A stretch of DNA of 64,000 nt, from positions 96,001 through 160,000 of IMG/VR virus record IMGVR_UViG_3300028603_000002; one strand, written 5' to 3'. Position 1 is the first letter of the stretch; every line of letters begins with the position of its first letter. The notes below the pieces were generated by a model. The model saw only the letters and a program-made list of their open reading frames with translations. It was not told where the DNA came from and ran no database searches. The translations under genes and the position numbers were made by a program. Below, one piece after another: positions 11,581 to 34,906 of the stretch. The DNA is from a virus. Lineage: Duplodnaviria; Caudoviricetes.

Positions 11581-11594
11581 AACTTTGATATATC

Positions 11595-11804: not shown

Positions 11805-11838
11805 CATTGCATTAGGGTATAAGAAAGCAAATTCAGAA

Positions 11839-13210: not shown

Positions 13211-13284
13211 CTTTAATAGTGTTTAGTTATCTAATACTTCTTAATTACATAATAAAGATAAGTAAAGTTTTTCAATTATCCAAA
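13208..13284 (-). promoter_or_regulatory. Promoter plus leader block; near-identical inverted copy at 15568-15646
   Basis: TTTGG..GAAAAACTTTACTTATCTTTATTATGTAATTA(A/G)GAAGTATTAGATAACT..AACACTATTAAAGATG shared by both. Confidence 0.8.
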
Positions 13285-13600
13285 TGATTACGAGAATATT
13301 TTCGAGAAAGATGAGAAAGATGCTATATAAAACAACCCATATAACTTAGTTGTAACAAGAGATAATCTTTATAATGGTATAAGGGTATAGATTCTCATAA
13401 ATAATCAAGGAGAATTAAAGTATGTGGGTGATACAGCAAAGTATAGGTATGGTGAGATAGTAAAACTTTAAGTGATGGCATATTAATCAGACATATTCTA
13501 GAGCCATTGAAGTATAAGATCTTGATCAGTAGGATTTAATCTCTTTTCTGAAAGAAGTTGTTTTAATTTAATGCTCATTATTTTCATTCCTTTTATATAA

Positions 13601-13894
13601 TTACTTGATTTCTAATTCACCCTCGAATGGGTTGAAACGATCTGTTAAGAATGAAGAAGATCTATGTCCTTTCTTAATATGGGTTCCTTCGGCTCCTACA
13701 ATAACAATACCACTAAATACAGTTTCACCTCCCCAATTATCAATTTTACCATCACAAAGAACTACATATTGTTTAGATGTAACGTCTGATTTAAATATAA
13801 CAAATTTATCTTTGCCGAATATCTCTTTTATCACTCGGTCAAAATCTGAGGTTGATTCATCTTCTCTTAACAAATCTTTTAGTTTTGTGCTCAT
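13601..13894 (-). CDS. Hypothetical protein, paralog of 12983-13210 with an extra N-terminal MSTKLKDLLRE leader
   Basis: Shared VV.C.GK...FSG..V...KKG...F..(Y/F)(D/E)G pattern. Confidence 0.6.
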   Translation of the reverse strand: MSTKLKDLLREDESTSDFDRVIKEIFGKDKFVIFKSDVTSKQYVVLCDGKIDNWGGETVFSGIVIVGAEGTHIKKGHRSSSFLTDRFNPFEGELEIK

Positions 13895-13914
13895 TACAAT
13901 TTTCTATTTTGCAA

Positions 13915-13946
13915 TAAATATAAGGAAGTTATTTCAATTATCCAAA
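13915..13946 (-). promoter_or_regulatory. TTTG-N20-TATATTTA promoter
   Basis: Consensus match upstream of 13894. Confidence 0.6.
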
Positions 13947-13976
13947 TGATAAGTAAAACAAGTTGCATTGAATAAC

Positions 13977-14840
13977 AAAGTACTTTGAAGTACAAAGTGG
14001 ATATAATCAGAGGGAAGCAAAAACAATCGTTGGAGGAATAAAATATTTTTTATACATTTATAATCAAATTAACTAAACTAAAAATAATAGTATCATGAAA
14101 AAAGACAAAGAGTAAGATAAAATAACAAATGCAAGTATAAGACCAGGAATTGAAGAATTCACAGTACACATGCTTTACAACGCATTGAAAGCAATGAAGA
14201 AAGATAAAGAGCGGGAGGAACTAAATTCAATAATTCCAGATAAAGAATTAGATGATGCATTTACAAACACCAATTTCGGAAATATTACAAAAAGAGATGT
14301 AGTAAGATATGCACTATTAAAAGCAGCTTGTGGATATTATAGTGGACATACAGCTCAACGTATTATAAATGAATTAGGTTTGTGTAGTAAAGATTTAAAA
14401 TTAACAAAGAAAGGTAAAAAATATTTGTATGCATCATTTAGGAATGGAACGAATCATTAAAATAAAGTAGAATACTGAATATGTGATATACGTGTAGAAG
14501 AATAAAAGTATAGTAGTATAAGTAGTTATAAAGGTTAATGGAGTATACTGATATAAGATGTATAGATTAGTAGATTGTACCACTGAGCGAAGCGAAGTGT
14601 TGAAGTAAAGTGTATAGGAATAGTTTAAGCAAGTAGAATAAAGTTATTAGGTTTGAAGGTTTGTATACGGAACGGAAGGAACGAAGTGACTGGAGTGGAG
14701 TGTATAGAAGGAATCTATACGATTAATAAAGTTATTAGTTTTACCTATATCCTGGAGATAAGTATAATTAAAGGTCTAGTTAATATTATATACAGGGGTA
14801 AGTAAAGATTTTAAAAGTACTTTGAAATACAAAGTGGATA
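13977..14840 (+). repeat. 27-bp direct repeat AAAGTACTTTGAA(G/A)TACAAAGTGGATA (13977-14003 and 14814-14840)
   Basis: One mismatch; contains the palindrome AAAGTACTTT. Confidence 0.8.
14170..14460 (+). CDS. Hypothetical protein
   Basis: ORF track. Confidence 0.55.
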   Translation: MLYNALKAMKKDKEREELNSIIPDKELDDAFTNTNFGNITKRDVVRYALLKAACGYYSGHTAQRIINELGLCSKDLKLTKKGKKYLYASFRNGTNH

Positions 14841-15149
14841 ATATATGAAAAATAAACTGTAAGGGTTGCTCTGAGTCTTCGCTTGATCTCCACAATTCCC
14901 AAACTATATTAAACTTTAATCTAATACCAAATCTTAATAAAACCAAATATCCTATTGTTGGGTGTAAAAAATCCGCGGCCTACAAAAATAAGATCAAAAG
15001 ATTTATAAACTTTAATCCACTAAAACCAAATAAAACTAAAGTTTCATAGAAATAAATACTAAACAACTTCACTCCAGTCACTCCAGTCACTTCACTTCAC
15101 TACACTATGTTACGTTTCACTTAGTTCCTTTCGTTCAGTACATAAACCT
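14657..15149. repeat. Long-range imperfect inverted repeat (14657-14700 vs 15067-15149) in a non-coding region
   Basis: AGGTTTGTATACGGAACGGAAGGAACGAAGTGACTGGAGTGGAG vs CTTCACTCCAGTCAC...TTAGTTCCTTTCGTTCAGTACATAAACCT. Confidence 0.7.
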
Positions 15150-15226
15150 AGGAATCAATTAAACATTAGTATTTGGTTATCTCCTATGTATTCATTAACT
15201 TTATTATCTAATTAACTAAACATATT

Positions 15227-15391
15227 ATGGATAAATACGAGATTACAGTATGGAGATCTGATAAGGATAATGATCCTTGGGTGGAGTATGTATATGCTGA
15301 TTCTAAATCAGAAGCTTTTAAGAAAGGAAAGGAAATGTTTTATTCATTTCAGGTAGGTAGTATATATGATGTACTTGTAGTGAAAGTTTAA
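15227..15391 (+). CDS. 54-aa hypothetical protein, not in ORF track (MDKYEITVWRSD...)
   Basis: Manual translation. Confidence 0.5.
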   Translation: MDKYEITVWRSDKDNDPWVEYVYADSKSEAFKKGKEMFYSFQVGSIYDVLVVKV

Positions 15392-15567
15392 GTGTTCTGG
15401 AATGCCCGTGAGATTGTAACTATTCCCAGAATCTTGTTATCACTTGTTTTCCTTAGTTCTCCTGTGTTTTATTGTATATTGGATACCTTATTATACCTTT
15501 GCTGTATCTCTTATTATACGTTAGTTATACACGTTATACAACTATATGAAAAATAATTGGTTAAAAG

Positions 15568-15646
15568 TTTGGAAATCTGAAAAACTTTACTTATCTTTAT
15601 TATGTAATTAGGAAGTATTAGATAACTTAAAACACTATTAAAGATG
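15568..15646 (+). promoter_or_regulatory. Promoter plus leader block (inverted copy of 13208-13284)
   Basis: TTTG at 15568, TATCTTTA at 15592-15599, ATG at 15644. Confidence 0.8.
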
Positions 15647-17062
15647 AAAAAGATATCATTAAAACAAGTAAAACAAATAGCCTCTGAAATTTCAAAGAGG
15701 TGGAAATTTGTTAAACACAGTTCATATTACAACTGTATTGATACTAAAACTGGACAGGAGTCAAATGTGGGAGGAGATTATAATTTTGCCAGTTATCATT
15801 TTAATAATGCTGTTGAGGCAATGTATTTGAGTATGATTGGTGAGAACGCGTTGTATCTTGATTGGAGTACAGTGGGTGTGAAAGAATCTGAGGAACGCAA
15901 ATCCTACATTTACAAAATACGAAAAGAGATAGTTCGACTTCTTTGTGGTTTTGACTTTGCGGGTTGCGAAGTACTTAATTATCAAAAATAACTTAGTAAC
16001 ATTAAACAAAATGGCAACAGAACAAAATATAAAAGACGGACACAGATATTTGATACAATTAAGTGTAAAGCAAGATAGCTTTTTGTTTAATATGTGGGAT
16101 TACGTTGAAAGTGTAAAAACACTTAAAGAGGCAGAAAAGCTATGTGAAGGACTATATGATAAAAGCGTTCACAAACTTCAAATATGTGATTTAGTAACGA
16201 ATACTATTGTTAGAACGTGGACGTAGCCTTGCAGCTAACATCCATATAAACTGTACATAAAATAGCAGAAATTAAAACAATAACATTATGATAAACAATA
16301 TAGTCATTAAAAATGAAACCCGTGAAATGGGGAGGAAAATAATTAAATACTTCAATGATCGAGGTATTGATACACGTATACTTAATGGCACAGCTTGCGC
16401 GGAAGAAATGCATAACAATATATACTATGGAGTTATTGATGGTTATTTTGATAACTACACCTTAAAATATGTAGAAAGAGCAGGGGCTAAAATAATAACG
16501 CTACCTGAATACCCAAAAGTAATGAGGGTAGCGCATGATAAATATTCTACCAGAACCCAACGTGTGGTCATAGGTACAGCAGATGCTGGCACCCATATCC
16601 AATATGTTGCATATAGAGATGCAAAAACATTAGATGATATACCATATCCCACTGAATTCAGGCTGTGGGACTATGCGGAAGATATTACAGAAACAGAACC
16701 TATCCTAATAGGAAATAGAGAAGTAGAAGTAACTGAAGATGGAATAAAGGTAGGTTGTACACAGGTAGACAATGAAACAATAAAAAAGATATATAACTTA
16801 AAATTTAAAGATAATGAGTAGACAAACATTCGACACTAGAGTACCTGATATGGTACAAGCAGTACTAAAGAACAATGGTGCAACCTATATAAGGAGATAC
16901 ACCGAACCAAGAATCAAAGGATATAGAACTAAATGGTGGGGAATAAATAACATCTCCCTTAATGTAGAAGAAAGGATTAAGATGTTACCTGGTATAAAGA
17001 GAGTAGTAAATATACCTGGCAAAGTTCGGTCGCCACAATCATTTGCAGTGTTTTGGGAATAA
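15644..17062 (+). other. Operon of hypothetical CDSs 15644-15991, 16010-16226, 16288-16821, 16814-17062
   Basis: Promoter upstream, terminator downstream; 16288 is paralogous to 19008-19556. Confidence 0.65.
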
Positions 17063-17110
17063 TTAAACATCCTGTATAACCAATCTGAGATTTCATTTTT
17101 ATAGTGTTAG

Positions 17111-17148
17111 CCCTTCATGGTAGAGATATCATGGAGGGTTTTTCTTTT
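17111..17148 (+). terminator. Rho-independent terminator
   Basis: CCCTTCATG-N10-CATGGAGGG followed by TTTTTCTTTT. Confidence 0.75.
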
Positions 17149-17171
17149 ATACTAGGATAGGTTATTGTTAA

Positions 17172-17953: not shown

Positions 17954-20068
17954 AAACTCTACAACCATAAATACCTTCAGTCGTCAACCTCTTAATCTCT
18001 TTCCAGGACTTCACCCGCACTTTATCGCCGAGTTTAAAATCTGTAGACTGTTCACCTGCTTGTTTACCGTTACAGGACGTATCTGCCGGTGTTGCAAGTA
18101 ATTGGTCAAGCTTGGCCTCGATGCGGTTTAGCAAATCCATCAACTCGTCATCTTGCACGGATACGAGGACTTTGGCATCTTGCGGTGCTTCCGCTGGCTC
18201 GGGGTATTTTTCAAAGAATAGAGTGTAATTACCGTCATTAAGGACCGATTTCCAAAATGAATAGTCCTCCGGGGTTTCAAACCAGTCAAATCCGCCATTT
18301 ATTCTGCCAGTGGTCCGCCTCTTCTCAAACACGCTCACATCTCTTGGATTACCCTGCGTCACCTGATGCTCTAACATCTTATGAACAATTGGGTCTGCAA
18401 TGTTTTTAAGGTCGCCTTTGTATGAACATTTCATTTTGCTTGATTTTTATGTGTGAATTAATGTTATTCTTCCTCCTCCCACTCAATCAACGGACAGTGG
18501 TCGTCTTTTAATTTCTTCAGGCCATGTCCTACTGCTTTAAAGCTCTGACCTGCTTTAGATTCGCGGTTCCTCAACTTTTCAGGTAGTGCTTCGAAAAAGA
18601 GGTAGCTTAATAAAACCGTAGCTAATGCCGCTACGGGAACGAGAGCAAATACCAGAGCTGCGGCCCATACTACTTGGGATGCTGTGTTTATATATCCCTG
18701 ATCTAACTGAATCAATGCAGGCATAATGGAGATTATCAAATGAGTCAGGCCGATGCCCCATAATGCCTTAGTGCAATACATACTATGCCATGTAGGTTTA
18801 GTAGTATCTTTATCAAAATAAGACAATATATATGCTATAGAATAGTATAACACCCCCGGTATTGCAGTCACTAAGAGAAGTATAATCCCCACTAGCCCTT
18901 TCCATGTAAGGCTACACCAGTTAGTAGGATAAGAGTATGGATTACCTTCAGTAAACTGCCAGGCTTTTACGAATAGGTTGTTTTTACTCAGTTTCATAGC
19001 GGGGTATTTAGCTTTTGATTATTACCTGGTCAACGCCCAATTTCTCGGCTATTTCCTCCATTGTAAGCTCCATTATAATTTTGGGCGGAGTGTATTTGTA
19101 CTCGTCGGTGTAGAATAGATCGTCAATGCTACCTTTGATGTACTTATCTGCCTTCTCGGGCGCCAAAACTGAATCCCGCGAGATTATTCCGTCCTTTTTG
19201 GCAAATAAATATAGAAGGTGCTTGTTTTCGCTGACTGAGTCGCGACCATATAACCAACGATACCCCAACTGAATAAGCCTCACCTGAATAGCTCTTGAAA
19301 GTTCAGCGGTAGGCACATTAAACACATAGCCGCCGATTGAAGGTAATTCAATTATTTCAGCGTTGGCTTTCTCTACTTGACGCAATGTGTAATTATCGAA
19401 TTCCCCGTCAATAACTCCGTAATACCTGTAGGAATCACCATCAGATTTACAAGAGGTTCCTACAAGGTGGCGTGTATCAAATCCCCGACTTTTCCAATAC
19501 TCAATGACCTTTGCCCCGTGGTCGGGCGTTAGTGCTTCAATTACTTGGTTTTTCATTTTACAAAAGTTTTTGTTCGTTCTAAAATCTCATCCCCCAACAT
19601 CCTGCGAACAATATCGGCAGTTTGGCGTTGGTTGGCCGCTTTGTCTGAGGCAGTACGGTCAGCAGCAGCAGCAGCAGCAGAAGAATTACCACAAACAGCA
19701 CAATAAGCAGCATCAGCAGCAGCAGAACGATAACCAACAGTAACAGCAGCAGCAGCAGCAGCACGATAAGCAGCCTGCAACTCTTCCTCCGTAAGCAATC
19801 CCTCTCCGTAGGCAATAGCCGCATCAACACCCTTTATGCTGCGCGCATCTTTCATCAAATGCCTGACCGTGTTCGCACAGTGTCCTGCGCAGCCGACTAA
19901 TTTACGGCGATAAACGCCCGCTTTCTTCGCCCACCATAGCAGCCAATCGCCACGATGGCAGTCGGCTAAGGTTTGGGTAGGGGTGCGGTCGCCAAGCCAG
20001 TCAATGGCATCTTCGCAGGCAGGACCTAAATGGCCTTCGTCTGATAGTAGAAATTCTCTGAATGTCAT
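17904..20068 (-). other. GC-richer block of CDSs: 17904-18434, 18464-18997 (membrane), 19008-19556, 19553-20068 (Ala-rich, GCT repeats)
   Basis: Abutting ORFs; visibly higher GC than the flanks. Confidence 0.7.
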
Positions 20069-20489: not shown

Positions 20490-20520
20490 TTCTTTTTGTT
20501 ACCTTAAATTTCAAAATTGC

Positions 20521-20544
20521 CAGTAGGGTGAGGGTCGAACTCAC
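20521..20544 (-). pseudogene. Possible tRNA 3'-half remnant (T-arm only)
   Basis: Minus strand GTGAG-TTCGACC-CTCAC-CCTACTG; no matching 5' acceptor strand found. Confidence 0.25.
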
Positions 20545-20750
20545 AATATAGCTTCTGAATAAAGTGGGTTGCCAATTATTATCCTTTTCCCTAACGCTCC
20601 TAGACCAGTCTTATACTTTGTTACTTGATGCTGGTTTTAATTAAGCCTTTCTAATTAGAACCTTTTGATTATACTATAAATATAAGAAAGATCTTTCAAA
20701 GTACCAAATTATTTTGAATAAACTTACGTAATCAGTTTGATGGTACAGCA

Positions 20751-20816: not shown

Positions 20817-21205
20817 TTTTGCCAACAAAAGAACTATGGCTAACAGCACCTAACCTCAATAAATTATCACGGTATTCATCGGCTGTAAAGTTTTCAAAGT
20901 TTGTGGTTTCTATATTCATTTGTACTAATTTTAAGTTGAAGATGTTAAGCTTATACGGATGTTAGCAAACATTTTCCAACCCACACCGCACTTGAATATT
21001 TCCAAGTTCCAATTCTCTTTCAATATCTTCAATATCTCTCCAACAATCTACTCCAACTGTATAACTATACCATCCACAAAAATCTTCAATACTATCATCA
21101 AAATAACCTTCTGAATATATTTCATATTCAAAACCATCGACAAATTCTTCTATTGTCGGTATTCTATATCCTTTTCTTAATTCTTCTGCCATCGCTAAAA
21201 ACGTT

Positions 21206-21299
21206 TGCTAACAAGGTATATATGCAATACCCTATTAAGGTTTGTACTAAATTTTAAAGTTTGGTGCAAGGGTGCTGCATATATACCCAACCGTTAGCC
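21206..21299 (+). repeat. attC-like site
   Basis: TGCTAAC...GTTAGCC; arms GGTATATATGCAATACCCT / AGGGTGCTGCATATATACC, 17/19 complementary. Confidence 0.75.
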
Positions 21300-22987
21300 A
21301 CCATTTGACGACCGTTGTACTTCGACTGCAATTTCTTCAAGCAATTCAAGTATTTCATTTGCCCAAGTGTGGTCTATGTTTATTTTTGATACCTGAGTGT
21401 CAAATCCGAGCTTTTTAGCAACATCCATATCGTGTCGCATTTCGCCCTTGAATCTCCTGTATTCTTCTTTTTTCTTTGTGATGAGTTCTAATACTTTTTC
21501 CATAACCGTTATCATTTATACAGGTGTTGACTACTCACCAATATAGTGTGTTTCAAAATCATAACCATCATTTACCTTTTGAAGTTTACCTTCGTCAAGA
21601 TTTATGATTTCTCTTATATTTTTAAGTTTAGTGTCAGCAATTTCTTTTGTGTGTATTTCAATATCAATACCTCCAGAACCGTCACCATCAATTTGAATTG
21701 GCAATAATCTGTTTGCACCAACATCACCACAATATTGTATTTTTCTGAGAGCAATCATAAAATCTTTTAAATCTTCATCAGAAATTGCTGTAATTCGCAA
21801 GTCAATAAATTTTCGTTCCATATTGTCGTTTTAAGTCGTTAAAATTATGTGCGCATAGCCATAACCGTTACCATTTATACGGGTATTGTAGCACATACGC
21901 TCACTACTTTTTCGGTTTCAATTTACCGTCTGCACATTTAGGGCAGTATATTGTTTGATGTTTTGTAATTCTCCACCCTTTTTTACTCCACGCACTGGCA
22001 GCATCATACGGGTCGCAATCCATTTCTCTTCCAATAGTTCTACACTTATGGCACATTATTGTGTTTTCAGTAGTACAATGTTCGTATAGTTCATGTATTT
22101 CATCCATCTCCGTTCGTTTTAAGATGTTAGTAATAGTTTATAAGGGTATTATCGGCAATTATTCCCAAGTAATTTCCACCATTTTTGCATCTTCCATCAT
22201 TTTCATTAATCCGCAAAATTCTCTCCAATGATATTCAGTTATTGTTTCACCTATACTATTACTAAGTTTATTTAAACAGTTGTATATCTCTGTATTAATA
22301 TAACTACCGCTAACAACAGGTGTACTTGATGCTTGTGTTTCTGCCATTTGTAAGTTCGGTTCTTTTTTCATGTTGATTAGTTGGTTGGTTTATACGGGTG
22401 TTATAGGCAATTGCCACTAAAGTATCTCTCTACATTCGGGACAATAATTTTCAGCAATTTGTTGAACCCATTTTTTATTTTTATGTTCACATCGTGGCAA
22501 CTGTTCGCTTTGCCGTACAACATTGTATAAATCCAATTGCTTACGTGCTTCAATCAATTGAGCTTCCAACCAATCCTTGTAGTTGTCGAGGTCAAAGTGT
22601 ATGTCTGTTTCACCAACCGTTTCAGGATGGTCAAGTCTAAATTCTTCTTCAAATGTATATCTCATAATTTCTGTTTTTTAATTCGCCCTACGCATACAAT
22701 CGACCGTTAGCGTTCAGCCTATCGCTGCGGGTAGTTAAGTTTATACGGGTGTTAGGTGTAATGTCAACACCATTCTACGCTAATCACTTTTAGTTTACAC
22801 CCATCAACATCATTTATTACATGCCCTTCCTTGGGGTGAGAGTCTGTAATTGATATTGGTTCATTTGTCGGTTCACACCCCATTTTGAACAATAGTCTTG
22901 AACCTTTAGGTAAAAATGCTTTTGAGGTCTTTGTGATGAACCAAGTTTTTAACTTTTCGTTACCCCAAGCAAATCGAACAACGCTAC

Positions 22988-23107
22988 ACCTAACATCCGC
23001 TATAGTGCACGTATGTTCTGTTGTTTTTGTAATATTTTGCATAACTCAAAGTTTATTTCTGTTTGGATGCGTTATTGAAGCCACGCACCATAGCTTTACC
23101 GTTAGGA
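22988..23107 (+). repeat. attC-like site
   Basis: ACCTAAC-ATCC-GCTATAGTGCACG...ACGCACCATAGC-TTTACC-GTTAGGA. Confidence 0.6.
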
Positions 23108-24288
23108 GAAGTTAAAGAGAAAACCAATCACTTTCCTCTTGTCTACTCAGAAGCTCCTCAACAGCCTCTTTGGTAGCAGGACAAGCGGAGTAAAAACAAT
23201 TCTTTGCTTTCACCTCAAGTTGCTTCAGCTTTTCAAAGTCTCCGTCCACTAATTGAAAAAGAAACAGAGTTTGCTCGTTGCTGTGATTAGTCCGATCGGT
23301 TAACCAATTAAGTCGTTCTTTATCAAGCTCGTACTTATAGGTATCTTTGCGTCCATACTTCAATTCCATATTCTATTAGCTTTACGATGTTACTGTTTAT
23401 ACGGGTGTTAGACGCAACGCTAAGAAACCAACCTACCTTCGACATTTTCTTTCATTTTGATTAACTCATCCCTATAACCAGAACCACCATCTTGGTTGGA
23501 ATAGGGCATTTGCAAGTGTTCATTTATTTTTACCAACAACTTAGCTGTTTTCACTTTGTTATCCTGATGCTGGTCAATCCATTTATTGTATTTACGAATA
23601 ACTTTGTTTAGTTTGGTTCTACCTTCTTTCCACCAAGATATACCTACATTTTCATCCCACTCTACTATTTTTTCCATATTCCGTTCGCTTTACGATGTTA
23701 CTGTTTATACGGGTGTTGTGTGTAATTAAAGCAAGCCATCGTTATTTTCGCCCATCATCGTATCAACGGCTTTTTCAGCATCTTTAGCCGCACTTTTAAG
23801 CAGCTTCTTTGTGTTTTCAGGTTCGTTTCCTGTGGCTACATCTACCACGTCTTTTACAATTGCAACAGGTGTAAGTGCTGTTTTTACTGCTGCTGAAATT
23901 ACGTTTGTTAAGAATCCCATTTGATTAAAATTAACTGCTGCCAACAATGTAGTAAGGCACAGGCAGCGTTTGTGCTTATCGCTGTGGGTGGTTGAGTTTA
24001 TACGAGGGGTAGGTGTAATACTAAAGATTCCTACTAACCAACCCTGTTCCATTACACCAAGTACAATCTTCTTCATTACCAAAATCGTCTATTTCAATTT
24101 TACCGCCACCCCAACAAACAGTACATTCCAATAATTCCTTAGTGGAAGTACTGCTGCCAACAGCACCTAAATCGCTATTGGCGGTGCTGTGGTTGTTCTT
24201 ACTTTCGTTCTTACTTTCGTTCATTACGGTTTAAGTTTTACCGAGTTTCCTAAATTGAGGGTAGTTATGTTTATACGGGTGTTGTGCT

Positions 24289-24693
24289 TCATGCAAGGAA
24301 ACTCCCGTGCTTAATTATGAAGTACAGTTTATTAGGGTCTCCGCCTAAATCAGGCTTGCCCCATCCGATCTCAATTCCTTTGTGTTCCATTTTCAATATC
24401 CTTTCCTTATCAGTTGATTTTGGATAACCCAATGTCATTGTGTTTGTAAGGAATGGCTTAAAACCAATCATACTTCTTTTCAATTTATCCCCTGCAATAC
24501 TTGACAGATAGGCGTTTATAGATTGTTTGTCCAAGTAATCCCAATCATATCCAGACGTGTACTTAAAAACCTTCTTATAGTCAAATACAAGTCTTTTAAA
24601 CCAGTAATCGTTTATGTCTCGATAATCTTCGGTTTTTACGCCCGATTTGGTCATGTCGAACCATTTTTTTTTAAGTGATAATTGCAAATTCAT
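24289..24693 (-). CDS. ASCH/PUA-like domain protein (cassette)
   Basis: LQLSLKKKWFDM.KSG.K.E.YR..ND.W..RL motif. Confidence 0.6.
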   Translation of the reverse strand: MNLQLSLKKKWFDMTKSGVKTEDYRDINDYWFKRLVFDYKKVFKYTSGYDWDYLDKQSINAYLSSIAGDKLKRSMIGFKPFLTNTMTLGYPKSTDKERILKMEHKGIEIGWGKPDLGGDPNKLYFIIKHGSFLA

Positions 24694-24715
24694 TTTGTAT
24701 CAGTTAAGCACGAAA

Positions 24716-24844
24716 GCACAACAATTGCTATAAAACATAGGGCGTTCGTGCGGTTATTAAAGTGTAGGGTTGTTTTTCAGGTGTTCGGTGTTTTCGAACA
24801 ATTCGGCTATCTATACCCTACGTTTCATGGCATAGCCGTTAGCG
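24716..24844 (+). repeat. attC-like site
   Basis: GCACAAC...GTTAGCG; arms GCTATAAAACATAGGG / CCCTACGTTTCATGGC. Confidence 0.7.
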
Positions 24845-24845
24845 T

Positions 24846-25034
24846 TCATTTTGACGACGCTCTCCGTACTTCTTCATTAAGCACATCGTAATTGTCTTTA
24901 ATGTACGCCTTTACATCGCCACTGCATTTGTTATTGTCATACAACCAAATCAGATAAGACGCAGGGACATTTATCATTTTATAACCTTGATATTTTCCCC
25001 AAGGCATAGGGCTTTCATCTGTTAAGTTTGCCAT
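24846..25034 (-). CDS. DUF3820-like protein (cassette); start at 25034, MANLTD
   Basis: MPWGKYQG.KM.NVPASYLIWL motif; ATG just after module 25039-25059. Confidence 0.6.
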   Translation of the reverse strand: MANLTDESPMPWGKYQGYKMINVPASYLIWLYDNNKCSGDVKAYIKDNYDVLNEEVRRASSK

Positions 25035-25071
25035 TTTGTTTAAGTTTATACTGGTGTTGTAGCACATACGA

Positions 25072-25287
25072 TCACTGCACTTTTGGTCTCCAATGTGTGA
25101 TTTCGTAATCAACATCACCATACTGTCTGTAATCGTAATGTCCAATTCCTGCCTCAATCCACCAAGTATCCCCCAAGTAGTAGCCAACAAGTATCTCATC
25201 ATTATAGTCTTGCCTTAGCTCACAATCAATAGGCTCATCGTTTGCGTCTAATTCAGGCAGTCTTTCATTTACATTTATCCAATTCAT
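25072..25287 (-). CDS. DUF551-like protein (cassette)
   Basis: MNWINVNERLPE...ITHWRP. Confidence 0.65.
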   Translation of the reverse strand: MNWINVNERLPELDANDEPIDCELRQDYNDEILVGYYLGDTWWIEAGIGHYDYRQYGDVDYEITHWRPKVQ

Positions 25288-25672
25288 ATCAGTTCACGTT
25301 AAGTTTATACGGGTGTTAGCAGCAATTATGCCCTTTTAGGATAGTGCTTCATACATTTGAAACAAGCCATTTCATCATATAGTGGTTTTAACTCAACATT
25401 GCAATCAGGGCATAACTGTTCGCTTTGCCCTACAACATCATGTATGTGTAAGGCTATGTTTAGTGCTTTATCAGCAAGTTTGTAAACAGTTGTAGTTCTA
25501 GCAAGCTGTTGTGTTTGCATTTGATGTTCCTTTATTTCTTCAAGTATCTTAATTATATCTTCCATTTCTAATAATGTTTAGTGTGAATATTCGCCCTACA
25601 TATACACCCGGCCTTTAGCGTCCAGCCTATCGCTGTGGGTGATTAAGTTTATACGGGTGTTATGTGCAAGCA

Positions 25673-26062
25673 CTACTGACCTGCTTCTTTATCAAGTTTT
25701 TTATAATGTCGTATAACATACGCAAGTTTATCTCTAAAATTAACCCTTCGCAATTGTTGAATAATGTCGCTGAATTTTTGTGCTTCATTATCAGGTATCA
25801 TCGAAATTAGTATATCATCGTGTTCGCAATGTATAGTTTCCATAAAATCATCTTGTGTCAAGCCTTCATCACAATGGTCATACATTTTTAATCTTGATGC
25901 TATTTCAGCACAATATTTGTGAGTTTTCCAGTCGTAAACTTGACCATCGTATTTGTGAGTAGATTTTATATAAGTATCACCTTTAGGTATTCTACACGCA
26001 CAAAAATTACAACTATGTTCTTTAATGGCTTTCGTTTCTTTTGGGTATGTTAATGTTTCCAT
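25673..26062 (-). CDS. Zn-binding hypothetical protein (cassette)
   Basis: KEHSCNFC..RIPKG..Y...H..C pattern. Confidence 0.55.
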   Translation of the reverse strand: METLTYPKETKAIKEHSCNFCACRIPKGDTYIKSTHKYDGQVYDWKTHKYCAEIASRLKMYDHCDEGLTQDDFMETIHCEHDDILISMIPDNEAQKFSDIIQQLRRVNFRDKLAYVIRHYKKLDKEAGQ

Positions 26063-26923
26063 ATTTTAATCAAATTTTAGTTGTTAATAACCCGCTACTA
26101 CATATATCGGATGCGGTTAAGTTTATACGGGTGTTGTAGGCAAGCTCTACTTACATCTGAAGTGAGTGAGTACTGCCATCGGATGTTCATCTTCATATCT
26201 ACATTCCGTACCATCATCAAACCTACACAGGCAGTTTCGTTTTGCGTACTCATTGAATATTGATTCATTACCTTCAAATTCGAGCCAGCCACTAACAGCA
26301 AATAAATCCAATATTCTGTCAGCGGTATTGGCAACGCTTTCACCTATTATACACTTGTTTAATAGGTCGATAATTTGTTCTCTTTTTTCCATACTGTCTT
26401 TATTATTTAAGTTAGTTGTAATGTCTCCATACTAAGCCACTCGCCTTTATATTTACCAGTGTAAAAGGGTATATTGCAAAAGCTCTCCAAAAGAAGGAAA
26501 CTTCGGCATCAAGTGCGCTTAGTATCCCGATAGTGGCGTACCACATAATCCATAATCCCACTATAAGCACCACCGCTAACAATCTACGAAATGCATTCCT
26601 ATTGGTTTCTTTATAATTTTCATCCATGATTCTATGTTTTGTGTTTATTTATTAAATTCTATGGTTCAACGCATCTAATACTCTTCCGTTGGCAGAAATA
26701 CAAGTTGGCCGTTATCCCATCCGCTCAGGTTAATTTCAATCGGCAAAAGTGACTCCTTGCCGTCATATATGCCGTGCGTGTATTGATGCAAAAACGCTAA
26801 CTGCTCATTCTCTGTCAACTCGCGGGTAACCTTAAACGACCCAGAGCCTATCGTTTCGCCAGTGTCACGTTGGTAAACTTTGAATCTGTATGCAAATCTT
26901 TGCATTCTAATTTTTCTCTAATG

Positions 26924-27301
26924 TTAGGCACAAGCACTACCGACACGCTCCAAAATAGCATCTGCGTGACAAGGAGAAGAAAGCGAGCAAAAACACGCTA
27001 AATCCTTTCCTTTTAGTTCGGTAATGCTTGGCGGAGTTGGCAAATAAGGTGCAATTGCTTTTAATTCACCATCAAGCCATCGGCCGTATAAATCAACAAT
27101 ATCTTTTGTTTCAAATCCACCTGAATAACTCCACATTATCCAAGGGTCTAATATTTTCCGATTAGTCGAGTAGCATTGAATAAAGCCATCATGTGTTAAT
27201 CGAAATGGATTTCCCCATTTAGTAGGTCTCCCTACATACTTTGCGTTTTCGGGCATTCTCCATCCCTTTGTTCGCCTTCTTTGTATTCGTTTCATAATCA
27301 A
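26924..27301 (-). CDS. DUF4326-like protein (cassette)
   Basis: RIQRRRTKGWRMP...YVGRPTKWGNPF...LKGKDLACFC...CHADAIL. Confidence 0.7.
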   Translation of the reverse strand: MIMKRIQRRRTKGWRMPENAKYVGRPTKWGNPFRLTHDGFIQCYSTNRKILDPWIMWSYSGGFETKDIVDLYGRWLDGELKAIAPYLPTPPSITELKGKDLACFCSLSSPCHADAILERVGSACA

Positions 27302-27307
27302 AATTTA

Positions 27308-27508
27308 TCACTTATTTGGTAGTTCTGGCAACTCCGTCCAATGAGAAGGGAACACGCTCTCCCCATTTACTACCCATGTTTTGCCATCTTTGTGTAAATG
27401 TCCAACCCTCATTATAGAGTCTTCACCTGTTTCTTGAAGTATTAGCAACACTTCTACTTCCGTATCGGGGGTATTGTAATTTACATCAAACCAAATTGTT
27501 TCATTCAT
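27308..27508 (-). CDS. DUF551-like protein (cassette)
   Basis: W.DV....P...SHWTELPELP. Confidence 0.5.
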   Translation of the reverse strand: MNETIWFDVNYNTPDTEVEVLLILQETGEDSIMRVGHLHKDGKTWVVNGESVFPSHWTELPELPNK

Positions 27509-28580
27509 ATCTGTTCACGTTAAGTTTATATAGGTGTTAGCAAACATTAGGTAAGTGATATGTAATATTTTTTCTTTTGATTTTCGACTGCATCAACAAA
27601 CCAACTTGGTAAGTTGTATTCAGTACATATTTTTTCAAACTCTATTTTAGGTAAGTAGCCTTTTGCTCTATCTTCTGCATACATTTTTATATGTAGGTTT
27701 ACACTACCTTTCGTCTTTAATAGAGTTTTTAACTTTTCAGGTTCACAAGTTGGTTTTATTACACCATTAGTATCATATAGGTAAAAACATTCCTTTGCGG
27801 TTTTACCGTTTTTATCAAATTGTATCAATTCAATTCCTTTTTTATTATGATAGTATTCAGTACCATCAAAAGAAAAAATATTAGATACAGATAAGTACCA
27901 ATTATAGTCTCGCTCAAAGTTTTTGCTGTATTTCATAACGTTTGCTAACAAAGTGTATGTGTAATAAGGCTACTTATCTACTACCTTTTCAACTTTCAAC
28001 TCATAAAGCTCACCTTTGTATTTAAACTGAACTTTTTCTTCAAGCTGTAAAAGGTGTTGAGCTACTGCGCCAACAGCCGTATCTGTTACATCATGTTTTG
28101 TTTGCCCCCAAGTTCCGTTCTTCAAAACTCTTCCAGCAAATAATCTACTCGTTAAAGGTGAGCAACCTACTTTAAAATCTGACATAATCTTTTTGTTTTA
28201 ATACTGACTACTTTACATTCCATATCAGTTTCCGTTAAGTTTATATAGATGTTGACAGCCATTTATTGAAACCACTGCTTAATCTGTTCTGTTCTTTGTT
28301 CGATCATCTCATTAATCTTTGGCAGCAATGGATAATTAGTTTCGTCAATCCAAACAGTTTCAGACTTACCATCTTTGCCTAATATAACTGTCGGAGTTGC
28401 TACAGAATAAATTTCTGTTCTTTTAGCGTGGAGTTGTTGCAACTGGTTATCGTTCAAGATCGCTTCTGAAATTAAACGGGGGCGAAGAGCGTATTTATTC
28501 AATGTGGAGTTTTTGTCGTTATTGTTCATTTCGGTATTTCGTTTTAATCTTCCGCGCTGGCATAGCGGATGACGTTAAGT

Positions 28581-28790
28581 TTATCCGGGGTTGATTGTGT
28601 CTTGAAACTTCTTCCTCAATGCTGACATCATAGCCTCAATAGCCCTGGGCATTTTTTTCACAACTTCATCTTTTGTTCGGCCCTGAACGACAACACCCTT
28701 AAGCTCCTTAATAATTCCTATGAACAATCCGGTTTTCTCATTATGAATTATCACCCCAGTGAAATTCTTGGTTTGTGCTTGTCTTCCCAT
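28581..28790 (-). CDS. HicB-like antitoxin domain protein (orphan)
   Basis: FTGVII...F.G.I.EL.GVVVQGRT.DEV...M..AI pattern; stop lies inside the last module copy. Confidence 0.5.
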   Translation of the reverse strand: MGRQAQTKNFTGVIIHNEKTGLFIGIIKELKGVVVQGRTKDEVVKKMPRAIEAMMSALRKKFQDTINPG

Positions 28791-29127: not shown

Positions 29128-29199
29128 TGTTTTCCTTTTTTGTCAATGTAACGTGCAATAATTCATGTTTTCATAATTTTATCTTTTTAATTTGTACTA

Positions 29200-29388
29200 T
29201 AAAGATATGAAAAATATTTCAAAGTACCAACTATGAAGCGAAAGATGTTTCTAAATTTGACCCGACCGCGGGAAAATTTATAATATCAGGTACAAAGATA
29301 AAATTTATTGTGTAATTATCGAAATTTTCAATTCAAATAATTTTCCTACATGTTTATTTGGATATCTCCTAAAAATTCATTATCTTTA
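29200..29388. promoter_or_regulatory. Divergent promoters (29200-29231 on -, facing array B; 29357-29388 on +)
   Basis: (G/T)TTG-N20-TATCTTTA on each strand. Confidence 0.65.
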
Positions 29389-29410: not shown

Positions 29411-29626
29411 ATGTATTATGTAGAAACAATGATTGATGGTATACTCCATTACAAAACAACACCGCATGGAAATTGGATACCTATTTCTATAGAAGTACTA
29501 TCACAAAGGGTGGTAAAAGCGGAAAAAAGAGTATCATTACTTAAAGATCAATTGCAAGAAGCTAAAAGTATACCCAAACTAACTTCTGAAGCTCTTGGGC
29601 AATTATTCACTGGAAAATCTAATTGA
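29411..29626 (+). CDS. Hypothetical protein
   Basis: ORF after promoter. Confidence 0.6.
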   Translation: MYYVETMIDGILHYKTTPHGNWIPISIEVLSQRVVKAEKRVSLLKDQLQEAKSIPKLTSEALGQLFTGKSN

Positions 29627-29627
29627 T

Positions 29628-31457
29628 ATGAATAAAGAAGTATCCAAATTAGTACAAGAAATTACAACTGAAAAACACGGTACTATATCTGTGGGTGGTA
29701 TATTATATCGTCGTGAGGACGTATATAAGATTGTTAAAATTGAAGAAACTGAGTGGGGTCCTGTATGTTATTGTATCGATCCTGATGGTGATGAACATAA
29801 AGTGTCTCGCAGTAGTTTACAAGACTATTATCAATACTATGAAGGTGATTTCGATGATCTGGTTAAGAAAGCAATAGCATTGAAACGAGGAGAATTTGAT
29901 CTAAGTGAATACCAGGAACAGTCTAATTCCGAATCAACTCAACTGATGAAGATAGATAAGAAATCATATGAAGTCTTATTATCTGATGTTAAGCGTAGAA
30001 GACATGAGCTTTCTATAATTCAAGCTCATTATCTCAGTATATTAGAAAGAGAAAAACGTAATTTAAGATCTATTATAGATACGTTTAACAAGAAGATTAA
30101 TAAGTTACGGGAGATTATATGGACTATTGAATTATATCTTGGTATAGAGGAGGATATAGTGCGCATTCAACAAGGAGCACCAGCATCAGACGAGGAACCT
30201 ATACATTTATTACAAGCTAGGCTATACATGGATGAAGAAGTTGGAGATCCAAGTGACGGTGGTCTTGATTTCAAAAATATTGAAGATTTCGATAATTGGA
30301 TGCTTAGTAAAAGCAAATTTTATGGATTTGAAAATTACAAATTGATAGTACCATTTCCGAAATGTGTACGTATAATGCGAGTAAGGCGGGATCAAAAGGA
30401 ATACCATGATAATCCATGGGTTAACTTCGAAATGAATATCCCGAACATGGAGACGTATATCATTATACGCAACGGTGAGAATATTTACACCATATCTACA
30501 ACTATGAGATTCGATGAAAAGTTATTTCCTGATTCTGATGAATTAGTGAAAATGTACGAGGAGATGGATAAAGATATCAATAATCCAAATATAATCAGTC
30601 GCAGCTATGATCCCGAAGAAAGGCATAAAAATAAAATTGATGAATTCATGCATACATACCGTAGAAATATGGTCGTAATGCAAGGTTTGCTTGATCGTAC
30701 CGAGGTTTTTGGTAATATGTCGGGTAAAGTATCCTTTATGAATGAAAAGTCTGCAGAAGAAGGCAAAATAGTGTTCTTCTACGAGAATCAAGGCAACCAA
30801 ATTGAAGATGGATCTGTCGATCCATTAAAATGGTTTGAAATCGCCAGTAGTAATCCAGTAGAAGGTCAACGAGTATTAGTCATTACTGAATCGGATTGGA
30901 AAACTTCAGAAGAACGTAATTATCGAATATATAACAGATATTTTTCAAATAAATGGGCATATCCAGATGCCATCCGAAACGGTATATATACCTTACATAT
31001 AGATAAGGAACATAGAGAATATGGTGAAAATAAAACTGTACTATATGTTAAATATTTGCCGAATGATGAAGTTTACACTGAGTATGGTAGCAAAGAAAGA
31101 ACCAGAAGATTTAGGTGGCGTCTGCATCCTAAAGAGTGTATTAATTTCGATCTTATATCACATAGAAATATCCAATGGGTAGATAATATGCTACATGATA
31201 GGAGAGTTAGAAAACATTATTCGAGATACATGAATACATTAATTGCTCTGAAGAAATACAAAGATAAAGAGTTAGAAGAAGAGTTACCATTCTGTCAACT
31301 CATACAAAGTTACTATCCAAAATTGGATATTGATGAAATCAGAGATTATGTATTTTGGTGGAAAACTAAGAATAAATGGAAGAGATCATTGACAGTAGAT
31401 GATCAGAAAGCGATTCGAATGATTAGAAAGAAAATTGAATCAACCTATAAAACATAA
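29628..31457 (+). CDS. Large hypothetical protein with a coiled-coil segment
   Basis: About 610-aa ORF; no recognisable catalytic motif. Confidence 0.8.
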   Translation: MNKEVSKLVQEITTEKHGTISVGGILYRREDVYKIVKIEETEWGPVCYCIDPDGDEHKVSRSSLQDYYQYYEGDFDDLVKKAIALKRGEFDLSEYQEQSNSESTQLMKIDKKSYEVLLSDVKRRRHELSIIQAHYLSILEREKRNLRSIIDTFNKKINKLREIIWTIELYLGIEEDIVRIQQGAPASDEEPIHLLQARLYMDEEVGDPSDGGLDFKNIEDFDNWMLSKSKFYGFENYKLIVPFPKCVRIMRVRRDQKEYHDNPWVNFEMNIPNMETYIIIRNGENIYTISTTMRFDEKLFPDSDELVKMYEEMDKDINNPNIISRSYDPEERHKNKIDEFMHTYRRNMVVMQGLLDRTEVFGNMSGKVSFMNEKSAEEGKIVFFYENQGNQIEDGSVDPLKWFEIASSNPVEGQRVLVITESDWKTSEERNYRIYNRYFSNKWAYPDAIRNGIYTLHIDKEHREYGENKTVLYVKYLPNDEVYTEYGSKERTRRFRWRLHPKECINFDLISHRNIQWVDNMLHDRRVRKHYSRYMNTLIALKKYKDKELEEELPFCQLIQSYYPKLDIDEIRDYVFWWKTKNKWKRSLTVDDQKAIRMIRKKIESTYKT

Positions 31458-33625: not shown

Positions 33626-34906
33626 CTAATACAGATTTTCACTAAATAAATAATCCGTTTCATCTTCAATTTGCCCCGCGTCAAAAGCAATCTTCCCTCC
33701 TTCCTCTCTATCTACGAATCTATTCTTATTTGTTAGAAACCCTTGAACGGTTTCTCCGACGCTGTTAGGGCCGAATGTAACAGTTCTTAATCCAGATAGG
33801 CATTTTGTTACCCATATGCAATTTGAATGCCTCCAACCGCATACTACAACCCCTACATCACAATTAAATGGTATAGCTCCACGGTGTGGTTCGGATACTT
33901 CCAAATCTTTATACCAGATAGCTGCACAAAGGATGTATTCTATATCCTTCATGCTCTTACTTCTTTGTTTTGCTTTGTAAAATCTTCTAATCTTTTCAAT
34001 AGATCCAATGGTATATCCTTCATAAACACATATCTTAAACTATCATATGGCATTTTATGAAAATCTCCAATTATATCATCCGTTGGTATTGGATGTAGAT
34101 AACATATATCACTATCTATTGCATGTTTTTTATCTTTGGCTGTTATTCTCGGCAATTCAATTACATCCTTTAACCAAAAATCTAATTTTGTCCAATTACC
34201 ATCCATATTCATAATAGCTTTCTTTACAACTGGAAAATACAATGTCTTGACCATTTCTTCAAATGTTTTAATTCATAATAAAGATAATGAAAATATCTTA
34301 TATTTCCAAATTATTTAGATCTTTCTGCCACTACTTCTAACTTCTGGTTTATCTCATCAATTATCTTTTGCCGGCGGGCGTTTAAATGTTCCGGATAACA
34401 ATCGACCTTATTGGTTAACCGTCTATATTTACCTCCGAATCCCAAATGACCACAAAATCTCCACTCGCTGCATGGATTTTCTTTACTATGATGATGAACG
34501 AATCCATATCTGTCTTCTTCATTGGCTCCGCCAATCTCAACTAATATATCATATACCTTATGTGCGTGTAATTCTGTCATATTTTTATTTTTCACATCAT
34601 TATACCAAAATACATTTTATCATCTACATTTGGATCTTCTAAAATTTCTCTTGCTGAATACAAAACCATTCCAGGCAAGTATTGATAATACACTTTGTCA
34701 TAATAGATATTATCATAATTAGAATATCTGCCTACTTTCAATAATTTCTTTATGACACTATCTTTCTTTTTCTTTAAGATAAAGACCATTCCATTTCTGG
34801 TAGTATTCTGATACTGGAATGAATATCCATTACTGTTAAGAATTAGATCATTCTTTTTTAGATCTTTATAAGGACCATAGTAAATAACATTATCTGTCAT
34901 TTCCAT
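33626..34906 (-). other. Hypothetical CDSs 33626-33952, 33949-34254, 34311-34595, 34592-34906; promoter 34279-34310
   Basis: Overlapping ORFs; promoter consensus. Confidence 0.65.

Follow-up and report, generated by a model that had tools for sequence, protein, structure and literature searches.

Approximately 40 small accessory genes in an uncultured 172-kb phage are set apart by 22-24 copies of one 29-base module, and the question arises whether this element is a recombination site, a promoter or a tag of shared homology. The copies were analyzed in a window of 64,000 nucleotides (positions 96,001 to 160,000 of IMG/VR record IMGVR_UViG_3300028603_000002; coordinates below refer to this window) and in the complete genome of 171,908 bp. 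The phage is a large virulent-type myophage in which two cassette arrays form hyperplastic regions, and its host probably belongs to the Bacteroidota. An initial sequence-only reading had described an attI-like repeat of 17-18 bp between the cassettes of one array. The presence and enrichment of this repeat were confirmed; its proposed extent and its reading as GTTRRRY were not, and a second array had gone unmentioned.

Anatomy and distribution of the module

On the gene strand, the 15-nt core of the module reads AACACCCGTATAAAC and is found in 22 copies with at most three mismatches and in two additional degenerate copies. A core search of the window at this threshold returned 23 hits versus 1.56 expected, and none of 100 shuffles yielded as many. 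Scanning the whole 172-kb genome with a PWM at a threshold of 12 bits identified 24 hits, versus 0-1 in shuffled genomes. Of these, 22 are the clear copies and one is the degenerate copy at 8794 (plus array); the remaining hit is weak, lies beyond the window and is probably due to chance. The copies are confined to two convergent arrays of small ORFs, with none elsewhere in the complete genome; all of them are intergenic and lie on the gene strand, and their orientation flips with that of the genes between the arrays. In the minus array, the motif is located where it had been described, from a first copy at 20944-20963 to a degenerate last copy at 28575-28593, and the variants GTTACT-, GTTACCA- and GTTATCA- are each present. 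The array that had been overlooked (9095-16251) is encoded on the opposite strand and contributes six more copies, whose orientation again follows the genes. The features of the plus array are:

7949-7990, plus: host-type (Bacteroidota-like) promoter candidate heading the array (TTTGG-N20-TATCTTTATTATG, ATG at 8006; the genome has 10 sites of this kind)
8785-8813, plus: degenerate module copy, core AATATCCCTATAACC (PWM 13.1 bits)
9086-9114, plus: module copy, leader family D1 (core 9095-9109, 0 mismatches)
9604-9632, plus: module copy, ATG 8 nt downstream (core 9613-9627, 0 mismatches)
10084-10112, plus: module copy, upstream ORF stops at TAA of TAAC (core 10093-10107, 3 mismatches)
10407-10435, plus: module copy, upstream ORF stops at TAA of TAAC (core 10416-10430, 1 mismatch)
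10822-10850, plus: module copy, leader family D2 (core 10831-10845, 1 mismatch)
16228-16256, plus: module copy (core 16237-16251, 2 mismatches)
17109-17150, plus: strong intrinsic-terminator-like hairpin closing the array (14 pairs and T tail)

The features of the minus array are:

20944-20972, minus: module copy, upstream box ATGTTTGCTAAC; ORF 20962-21192 stops in TAAC (core 20949-20963, 2 mismatches)
21196-21300, minus: the one complete hairpin junction (TGGCTAAC...GTTAGCAAAC), belonging to a hairpin family widespread in phages (24 pairs, 6 covarying)
21509-21537, minus: module copy, leader family D3 (core 21514-21528, 2 mismatches)
21868-21896, minus: module copy, leader family D3 (core 21873-21887, 2 mismatches)
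22131-22159, minus: module copy (core 22136-22150, 2 mismatches)
22383-22411, minus: module copy, does not fold (core 22388-22402, 0 mismatches)
22734-22762, minus: module copy, leader family D1 (core 22739-22753, 0 mismatches)
23390-23418, minus: module copy, leader family D4 (core 23395-23409, 0 mismatches)
23698-23726, minus: module copy, leader family D4 (core 23703-23717, 0 mismatches)
23991-24019, minus: module copy, leader family D1 (core 23996-24010, 3 mismatches)
24264-24292, minus: module copy (core 24269-24283, 0 mismatches)
25039-25067, minus: module copy, ATG 9 nt downstream (core 25044-25058, 1 mismatch)
25298-25326, minus: module copy, best PWM score, leader family D5 (core 25303-25317, 0 mismatches)
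25642-25670, minus: module copy, leader family D1; alone among the copies in having a significant inverted partner downstream, CGGGTGTATATGT (core 25647-25661, 0 mismatches)
26116-26144, minus: module copy, leader family D2 (core 26121-26135, 0 mismatches)
27519-27547, minus: module copy, upstream box ATGTTTGCTAAC, leader family D5 (core 27524-27538, 2 mismatches)
27937-27969, minus: type-B junction without core (ATTACACATACACTTTGTTAGCAAACGTT)
28234-28262, minus: module copy, leader family D5 (core 28239-28253, 3 mismatches)
28570-28598, minus: degenerate copy lacking 1 nt (TCAACCCCGGATAAACTTAAC), read directly; the last copy of the sequence-only reading
29195-29233, minus: host-type promoter candidate at the head of this array (TTGG-N19-TATCTTTAT; the ATG at 29127 lies about 70 nt downstream)

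The repeat had been thought to end at its final GTT after 17-18 bp. Because a further box is also conserved (ATTGC on the gene strand, most often 4 nt before AAC), the full unit spans about 29 nt and reads ATTGC-N4-AACACCCGTATAAAC-TTAAC. Information content is close to 2 bits per position for CGTATAAAC across copies, and TTGC or TTAC precedes AAC in 16 of 22 copies, at a distance of 4 nt in 12 and of 1 nt in 4. The expectation of a copy for nearly every unit holds in part, as a copy occupies 16 of 26 junctions in the minus array and 5 of 12 in the left part of the plus array, and some ORFs have none. Over all copies, the core lies -2 to 16 nt from the preceding stop and 8-81 nt from the following ATG, and five upstream ORFs terminate at the TAA within TAAC of the module. 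This tighter hold on the upstream stop codon than on the downstream ATG is expected of an attC-like element and is counted against a promoter reading.

No folding of module copies was detected (z about 0), and an inverted partner is absent for 21 of 22 copies within the searched 160 nt downstream and 400 nt upstream. A degenerate inverted partner of the copy at 22734-22762 lies inside ORF 22764-23042, at about 22985-23005. The conservation of sequence and not of structure therefore points to a protein that recognizes double-stranded sequence. The module might instead act in RNA, as a site for inter-cistron processing, stability or translational control on long polycistronic array transcripts, and its strand-specific, intergenic location, the one head promoter candidate per array and the lack of internal terminators are in line with such a role. 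Nevertheless, this is highly improbable, given that the module shows no RNA structure and no Rfam match, that the genome contains no guide sequence complementary to it (hits outside the arrays are at chance level), and that its distance to the start codon varies 10-fold. Known endoribonuclease sites are, to our knowledge, far shorter than 15-29 nt, which also counts against an RNA site.

Kinship with hairpin sites of other phages

The attI interpretation was originally based on the 7-5-7 geometry of attI1, including GTTRRRY. This argument fails: of 22 copies, only 2 agree with GTTRRRY, and on the gene strand each of the three boxes (AAC/GTT) reads AAC, so that they are direct repeats and not an inverted L/R pair. 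A classical attI1 site was rejected on these two grounds and on the absence of folding and of recombinases: a profile search of the complete genome (171,908 bp) for tyrosine recombinases (PF00589), which detected 14 of 14 positive controls, gave 0 candidates, and serine recombinases (PF00239) were likewise absent while their controls were detected.

What stands of the att-site reading is a kinship: att-like hairpin recombination sites in other phages have a left half of the same build as the module. In G013, an integron-like array of TAAC...GTTA hairpins lies beside, and points toward, a gene for a 265-aa Xer-like tyrosine recombinase. Every junction hairpin of this array opens, behind stop codons, with a TTGC-N3/4-TAAC left box that equals ATTGC-N4-AAC of the module and is also present in L278-L280. 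A hairpin-less half-site, ATTGCATATAAC-N6-(G/T)TA.AT, whose build resembles that of the module, is located 60-70 nt upstream of the recombinase gene in L275 and L280, and a shorter half-site, GCATAAC-N6, occupies the same spot in L276-L279. For arrays of TAAC...GTTA hairpins that adjoin the gene of a short Xer-like recombinase in Bacteroidota-type phages (G013/L269, L276-L280), no paper was found. Additionally, the whole module constitutes the 5' (left) arm of H3-type hairpins in unrelated phage contigs (L058, L060, L062, L006 and L004), of which L058 and L006 were folded into an outer CTAAC/GTTAG stem, an internal loop and an inner stem GTATAAAC... In a widespread hairpin cassette, the conserved loop also contains the box GTATAAAC(C)TTAA; it lies 17 nt downstream of TTGCAC and shortly before genes, an arrangement that is counted in favor of a promoter reading. 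Each of the unrelated phages with the module has a single copy, which would be odd for a general promoter and is counted against that reading.

In the present genome, the only folding element is the separate hairpin at 21196-21300, whose 3' part equals the type-B junction ATTGCATATATACCTTGTTAGCAAACG. The junction at 27937-27969 and positions 27539-27548 provide 10-nt inverted ends (GTTAGCAAAC...GTTTGCTAAC) that flank ORF 27547-27936; inverted ends of the GTTAG...CTAAC type are present on three cassettes. Left-arm fragments such as GCTAACGGT.. are scattered in leaders (D1, D3) and in the spacer at 24700-24846. These fragments, the one intact hairpin and the identity of the module with the left arm of H3-type hairpins could indicate that the modules are functionless relics of old hairpin sites, whose right arms were lost and whose sequences were homogenized by gene conversion. 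Such an origin appears quite improbable: CGTATAAAC is nearly invariant in 22 copies despite diverged flanks and only two copies are degenerate, it is unlikely that one and the same right arm disappeared on 22 occasions, and gene conversion alone should homogenize the flanks too.

Alternatively, the modules could be double-stranded, hairpin-less attI-type sites at which an Xer-like tyrosine recombinase inserts or removes cassettes, with crossover at AAC. Since the genome encodes no such enzyme, the recombinase would come in trans from a co-infecting phage or the host. The box shared with the G013 hairpins, the half-sites upstream of recombinase genes, the H3-type hairpin arms and the inverted ends on three cassettes argue for this possibility, as do the five stops inside TAAC, which recall integron cassettes, the homology boundaries at AAC in L058, L060, L062 and L067, and the finding that attC sites of virulent phages are IntI1 substrates (PMC9892861). 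We nevertheless consider it unlikely. In addition to the complete genome without a tyrosine or serine recombinase, most records that bear the related hairpin family lack a recombinase (present in only 1 of 16), and the boxes are direct repeats, whereas core sites of tyrosine recombinases need an inverted pair. In true arrays, stems vary and structure alone is kept, while here an invariant, unstructured 12-nt sequence recurs 22 times, an outcome that recombination would not produce, whether attI x attC or attC x attC. Finally, none of the recombinase-linked loci examined carries the ACCCGTATAAAC core. A combined version, with working attI-type half-sites that form two open racks in a recombinase-less phage, served by an Xer-like enzyme in trans and doubling as promoters, is judged decidedly unlikely; if true, any junction could gain or lose a cassette whenever a co-infecting phage supplies the recombinase.

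Transcription context and mosaic flanks

Each array opens with one host-type promoter candidate (TTTGG-N19/20-TATCTTTA); no host-type sites were found inside the arrays and no intrinsic terminators between cassettes, the one terminator-like hairpin being located at the end of the plus array. Read-through from the array-head promoters could express the genes with no need for internal ones, which is counted against a promoter in the module. The same applies to the motif itself, which fits neither the host-type sites of this genome (TTTGG-N20-TAtcTTTA) nor the sigma-70 consensus; measured from the end of TTG, its TTGC box is only about 12-13 nt away from TATAAA, and a sigma-70 scan of the region gave fewer sites than its shuffles. 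Neither sigma factors (PF04542, PF08281) nor a T7-type polymerase were found in the genome, and no MotA/AsiA-like or sigma-like gene was recognized.

The flanks of the module are mosaic. In both arrays, the members of five leader families (D1-D5) adjoin upstream tails and ORFs that are unrelated. Locus L067 has only ORF 26147-26392 in common with this genome, and homology stops at AGCTTGC, just before the core of the copy at 26116-26144. In a relative from sludge (run X3), ORF 27308-27508 is immediately followed by a module with 29-nt identity to 25298-25326 and divergence beyond. L058, L060 and L062 have the module and leader in common, with homology starting exactly at AAC. Cassette content also differs in runs X2 and X3 (contig fragments only) and in locus L067, and modules lie at the approximate boundaries.

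The explanation favored here, at roughly even odds, is that of a hairpin-less cassette-junction module that would carry a non-host-type promoter (TATAAAC box) and act as a PeSL-like point of modular exchange. It would be a composite of two parts, situated directly behind the stop of one accessory gene and 8-81 nt before the next. The 5' part, (A)TTGC-N1/4-YAAC, would represent the conserved tail of the upstream cassette, the same box that opens TAAC...GTTA hairpin sites elsewhere. The invariant 3' part, ACCCG-TATAAAC-TTAAC, would head the downstream cassette, most likely as a compact cassette promoter and leader start. Because no recognizable sigma factor or T7-type polymerase is encoded, the predicted promoter would be read by the host RNA polymerase, perhaps with an additional factor. 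Since 22-24 copies of these 29 nt exist, the modules could also offer stretches of homology for the reassortment of cassettes, leaders and upstream tails, a putative role for which the mosaic flanks are indirect evidence. A promoter or homology tag comparable to PeSL, which the sequence-only reading had listed as its alternative, fits the anatomy better than attI.

Comparison with known systems

In integrons, including the attC sites and CALINs that Qi et al. (2023; PMC9892861) described for phages, small co-oriented genes are likewise arranged in cassette arrays. The ...YTAAC box of the module resembles the inverse core RYYYAAC in its position directly behind stop codons or overlapping them, and elsewhere among phages this module forms the 5' arm of an imperfect hairpin that ends in GTTAG. 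Unlike integron sites, the module has direct boxes and an invariant, non-structural core, with neither integrase nor hairpin; 22-24 copies over two arrays contrast with one attI site heading an array, and the R''-L''...L'-R' single-stranded fold of attC sites and CALINs is absent. The hairpin arrays beside Xer-like recombinases (G013/L269, L276-L280) share with this phage the TTGC-N3/4-TAAC left box behind stop codons, small accessory genes in a single orientation and a hairpin-less half-site of similar build, which adjoins the recombinase gene there. Here, in contrast, there is one intact hairpin, no GTTA partner arm and no recombinase, and only here is an invariant ACCCGTATAAAC core reiterated.

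T4 middle promoters combine a MotA box, a TGC-containing upstream box, with a -10-like TAnnnT and need a phage factor. The module similarly has a TTGC upstream box and TATAAA, with shorter spacing than in T4. Intergenic repeats bearing promoters have been described for halovirus HF2 (PMC8707807); like these, the module is virus-specific, reiterated and intergenic, with a promoter role that is only predicted here. The PeSL (promoter-early stem-loop) cassettes of T4-type phages consist of an early promoter and a stem-loop with terminator or attenuator function, and a role as sites of homology for reassortment has been shown (Arbiol et al., 2010, PMC2839356; Comeau et al., 2014, PMC4122927). The module differs in that 21 of 22 copies have no stem-loop, terminator-like sites are missing between cassettes, the motif departs from the host-type promoter consensus of the genome, whereas PeSL contains a host-consensus early promoter, and sequence is shared with att-like hairpin sites. 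As in PeSL, a short conserved intergenic module, beginning at the preceding stop codon, is reiterated in hyperplastic regions upstream of small ORFans, and both the flanking genes and parts of the module occur in shuffled combinations, within this genome as well as among relatives.

A junction repeat in two convergent small-ORF arrays

The window covers bases 96001-160000 of a complete virus record of 171,908 bp, which carries direct terminal repeats and has a G+C content of 32%. The genome encodes a baseplate wedge protein, tail sheath, portal, major head protein and large terminase, together with a family-B-type DNA polymerase, a ribonucleotide reductase and an amidase, a gene content that identifies a large contractile-tailed phage. 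The nearest GenBank relatives of the baseplate protein belong to Microcystis phage Mel-JY01 (48%) and Flavobacterium phages (41%); in Mel-JY01, the closest phage by this protein, the motif described below is not above chance. DNA of this stretch is present in landfill, sludge and wastewater runs, and relatives occur in landfill and sludge samples (runs X2 and X3). A megablast search of the array against GenBank phages returned no matches.

The repeat between the small-ORF cassettes is real, and it is stronger than the sequence-only reading had stated, since it recurs in a second array and forms a longer unit. The motif was confirmed on the strand opposite the ORFs as GTTTATACGGGTGTT; its gene-strand form is AACACCCGTATAAAC. 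At three or fewer mismatches the window contains 23 matches versus 1.56 expected, a number that none of 100 shuffles reached. Genome-wide, 22 good copies are confined to two blocks, in both of which the motif is always on the gene strand:

Good copies of the module in the window
9095-16251, genes on the + strand: block 1, 6 good copies
20949-28253, genes on the - strand: block 2, 16 good copies

A PWM scan of the genome added one degenerate copy (8794), with shuffled genomes giving 0-1 matches. The copy that had been listed last, at 28575-28593, is present but carries a 1-nt deletion. According to a column-by-column profile, in which CGTATAAAC is nearly invariant across copies, the unit is not 17-18 nt long, as had been proposed, but approximately 29 nt, ATTGC-N4-AACACCCGTATAAAC-TTAAC. 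This unit is referred to here as the module and its 15-nt central part as the core.

All copies are intergenic, with -2 to 16 nt between the upstream stop codon and the core, and the TAA inside ...TAAC is itself the stop codon of five upstream ORFs. The next ATG follows the core after 8-81 nt; at copy 10416 alone, core and called start overlap by 2 nt. Of the 26 junctions in the minus array, 16 carry a copy; the remainder are mostly overlaps or short gaps, and one unit therefore comprises 1-5 ORFs. The approximately 45 small ORFs are mutually unrelated, one pair excepted, and a few of them match small phage families (DUF7446, DUF4326, DUF551, QSregVF_b, zinc ribbons). ORFs 20962-21192 and 27547-27936 are both bounded by 10-nt inverted ends, GTTAGCAAAC...GTTTGCTAAC.

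Several further features were observed in the window. The segment 17904-20068 (45% G+C, compared to 32% for the genome) is free of module copies and contains, on the - strand, a tandem row of four ORFs, each 171-182 aa long. Across the convergence point, ORFs 19008-19556 and 16288-16821 share 53% identity at their N-termini; ORF 19553-20068 is alanine-rich. At approximately 20505-20640 (- strand), a tRNA-like 3' half with the T arm GTGAG-TTCGACC-CTCAC followed by CCTACTGGCA is called by neither ARAGORN nor Rfam. Divergent from the minus array, 29595-31457 (+) encodes a 620-aa protein for which Pfam, PHROG, PDB and Atlas gave no match. Its 33%-identical relatives in IMG/VR contigs have a neighbourhood with its own reiterated host-type promoter cassette of approximately 50 nt (5 copies at locus L053).

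Signs of cassette exchange and the integron comparison

The leaders 3' of the module fall into five families (D1-D5) that are common to copies in both arrays, with differing upstream tails and ORFs; conversely, two pairs of copies have the same upstream tail and different leaders. Homology to locus L067 is restricted to ORF 26147-26392 (87% nucleotide identity over 26140-26313), extends through AGCTTGC and stops just before the core. In contigs of the sludge run X3, ORF 27308-27508 is directly followed by a 29-nt module identical to 25298-25326, after which the sequences diverge, and these contigs contain further joints unlike those of the studied genome. Distant IMG/VR homologues of ORF 27547-27936 showed no conserved junctions.

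The sequence-only reading had likened the module to the attI1 simple site and its GTTRRRY box. This comparison fails as stated: the 7-mer agrees with GTTRRRY in only 2 of 22 copies, and the three boxes CTAAC, TAAAC and TTAAC are direct repeats, not the inverted pairs that make up tyrosine-recombinase core sites. A search of the complete genome for tyrosine recombinases (PF00589) yielded 0 candidates, with controls at 14/14, and no serine recombinase was found in the genome. The module copies do not fold (z approximately 0), and 21 of the 22 lack an inverted partner in both the 160 nt downstream and the 400 nt upstream; as copies without a hairpin, they are not attC sites. The module fails every defining attI or attC test. 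A degenerate inverted copy, ACACCTAACATCCGCTATA, was observed at 22985-23005 (+) inside ORF 22764-23042; it lies 226 nt from the module at 22739-22753 and forms a long-range inverted pair with it around most of the ORF.

No intrinsic-terminator-like sites were detected between cassettes; the + array is closed by a single strong terminator-like hairpin at about 17109-17140. The 70-nt D1 leader folds no better than shuffles. An Rfam search of 8000-30000 gave 0 matches at E up to 1, and a signal acting at the RNA level is very improbable as the function of the module.

Hairpin sites of related sequence in other phages

Exact-core scans covered IMG/VR (51 loci), JGI metagenomes (10 loci) and GTDB genomes (at least 120 loci) and gave only single matches per contig, mostly at chance level, with no second phage carrying a reiterated core. 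They also located the module with an ATTRC-N4 upstream box in unrelated phage contigs, at one copy per genome:

The module in other phages
L058, L060, L062 (same sequence as L020): 5' of terS-terL-portal
L006: 5' of RusA/NinB-like genes
L004: 5' of replication genes

These contigs and the studied genome have no proteins in common. In them, GTATAAAC(nn) pairs with (nn)GTTT(T)ATAC located 13-45 nt 3', followed by N3-GTTA(G); L058 and L006 fold into an outer CTAAC/GTTAG stem, an internal loop and an inner stem. The mutual homology of L058, L060 and L062 begins exactly at AAC.

The phage record G013 (L269 = G013:C1:1-16000) contains a true array of the integron-like kind. Hairpins of the form TTGCnnnTAAC-N5/6-stem...stem-N1-3-GTTA (z -2.8 to -3.4) separate its small genes, which are all directed toward a 265-aa Xer-like tyrosine recombinase encoded at L269:3466-4263, and a half-site without a hairpin, ATTGCATATAAC-GTAGAC-TTATATATC, lies just 5' of the recombinase gene. 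The relatives L276-L280 have the same layout; at some junctions in L269 and L276-L280, the start codon of the next ORF is inside the hairpin loop. The ATTGC-N4-AAC part of the studied module is the left box of the G013 hairpin family. The suspected kinship to recombination sites was partly right through this left-arm likeness, even though the attI1 argument made for it was wrong in detail. That the copies are relic half-sites appears improbable.

The minus array itself contains one intact hairpin:

21196-21300, - strand: hairpin of 105 nt, TGGCTAAC...GTTAGCAAAC, z -3.8 (gene strand) and -5.3 (opposite strand)

Its conserved loop is TTGCAC-N17-TA(T/C)AAACCTTAAT. The family, bracketed by yTAAC...GTTAGC, occurs in at least 15 IMG/VR contigs of 9-325 kb at 1-3 copies per genome and has 24 consensus pairs, 6 of them covarying; a tyrosine recombinase is encoded in 1 of 16 records with the family, namely G013. 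The hairpin may serve as a DNA site of attC type, as a promoter placed within a terminator hairpin, or as both. In several runs, contig depth at this spot is very high.

The promoter reading and comparison with known systems

A k-mer census of upstream regions in the genome revealed two motif classes in addition to the module, which is therefore a third class limited to the arrays. The first consists of ten sites, TTTGG-N~20-TAtcTTTAttatg, and fits the Bacteroidota-like promoter type, which has -33 TTTG and -7 TAnnTTTG elements. One such site heads each array:

7949-7990, + strand: TTTGG-type candidate promoter heading the + array
29233-29195, - strand: TTTGG-type candidate promoter heading the - array

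The second class, ATATTTAT(ta), is located 6-80 nt 5' of 24 genes, structural genes among them, and may represent a late class. More examples of these two classes in the window lie upstream of 15644, 31993 and 33949-34254.

For the module, a promoter function is favoured by its location 5' of genes on the gene strand, by its TATAAAC box, which the hairpin family also has in its conserved loop, 17 nt 3' of TTGCAC, and by the lack of other internal promoter candidates in the arrays; its non-canonical geometry and tight tethering to the upstream stop codon argue against it. Hairpin loops of recombinase-linked arrays do not generally contain a TATAAAC box (2/15 versus a background of 16%). A further point against a promoter is that neither a sigma factor nor a T7-type polymerase was found in the genome, with the T7 positive control detected. 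Since no protein is common to this genome and the module-bearing phages G001-G003, there is no candidate common factor. Other candidates were rejected: a sigma-54 or ECF-type promoter by unsuited spacings, an antisense guide RNA target by a genome without a complementary copy, and a chi-like or packaging signal by the limitation of the motif to arrays and intergenic positions.

In recombinase-linked arrays the stems vary from site to site and only pairing is kept, whereas the 22 units here are each headed by an unstructured sequence of 12-15 nt that does not vary; this pattern points to duplex DNA being recognised in a sequence-specific way at each unit. This contrast also makes it unlikely that the copies are active attI-type double-stranded sites with a recombinase supplied in trans. 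The simplest duplex-recognition function is that of a promoter. At a probability of about 0.5, we favour the module as a promoter-bearing cassette junction that is kin to att-site left arms and undergoes PeSL-like exchange; its present function would most likely be transcriptional and recombinational scaffolding.

In large phages, the fastest-changing genes, many of which probably have counter-defence roles, lie in small-ORF arrays. To our knowledge, expression and reshuffling of such arrays are known only for the PeSLs of T4-type coliphages and, separately, for integrons. The studied array would stand between the two, with the position and likely role of PeSL promoters and the left-arm sequence of the recombination hairpins employed by other phages next to an Xer-like recombinase. 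Promoter activity of the module would define a class of non-canonical promoters in a phage of Bacteroidota type in which no sigma factor was recognised; recombination at the module would demonstrate that double-stranded half-sites are able to act as multiple entry points. Either reading provides a concrete, testable 29-nt sequence. PeSLs are closest in function to the module, although their stem-loop and host-consensus promoter are missing from it (PMC2839356, PMC4122927). Integrons share with it the cassette logic and the TAAC box, as do the CALINs described from virulent phages, among them a Polaribacter phage (PMC9892861).
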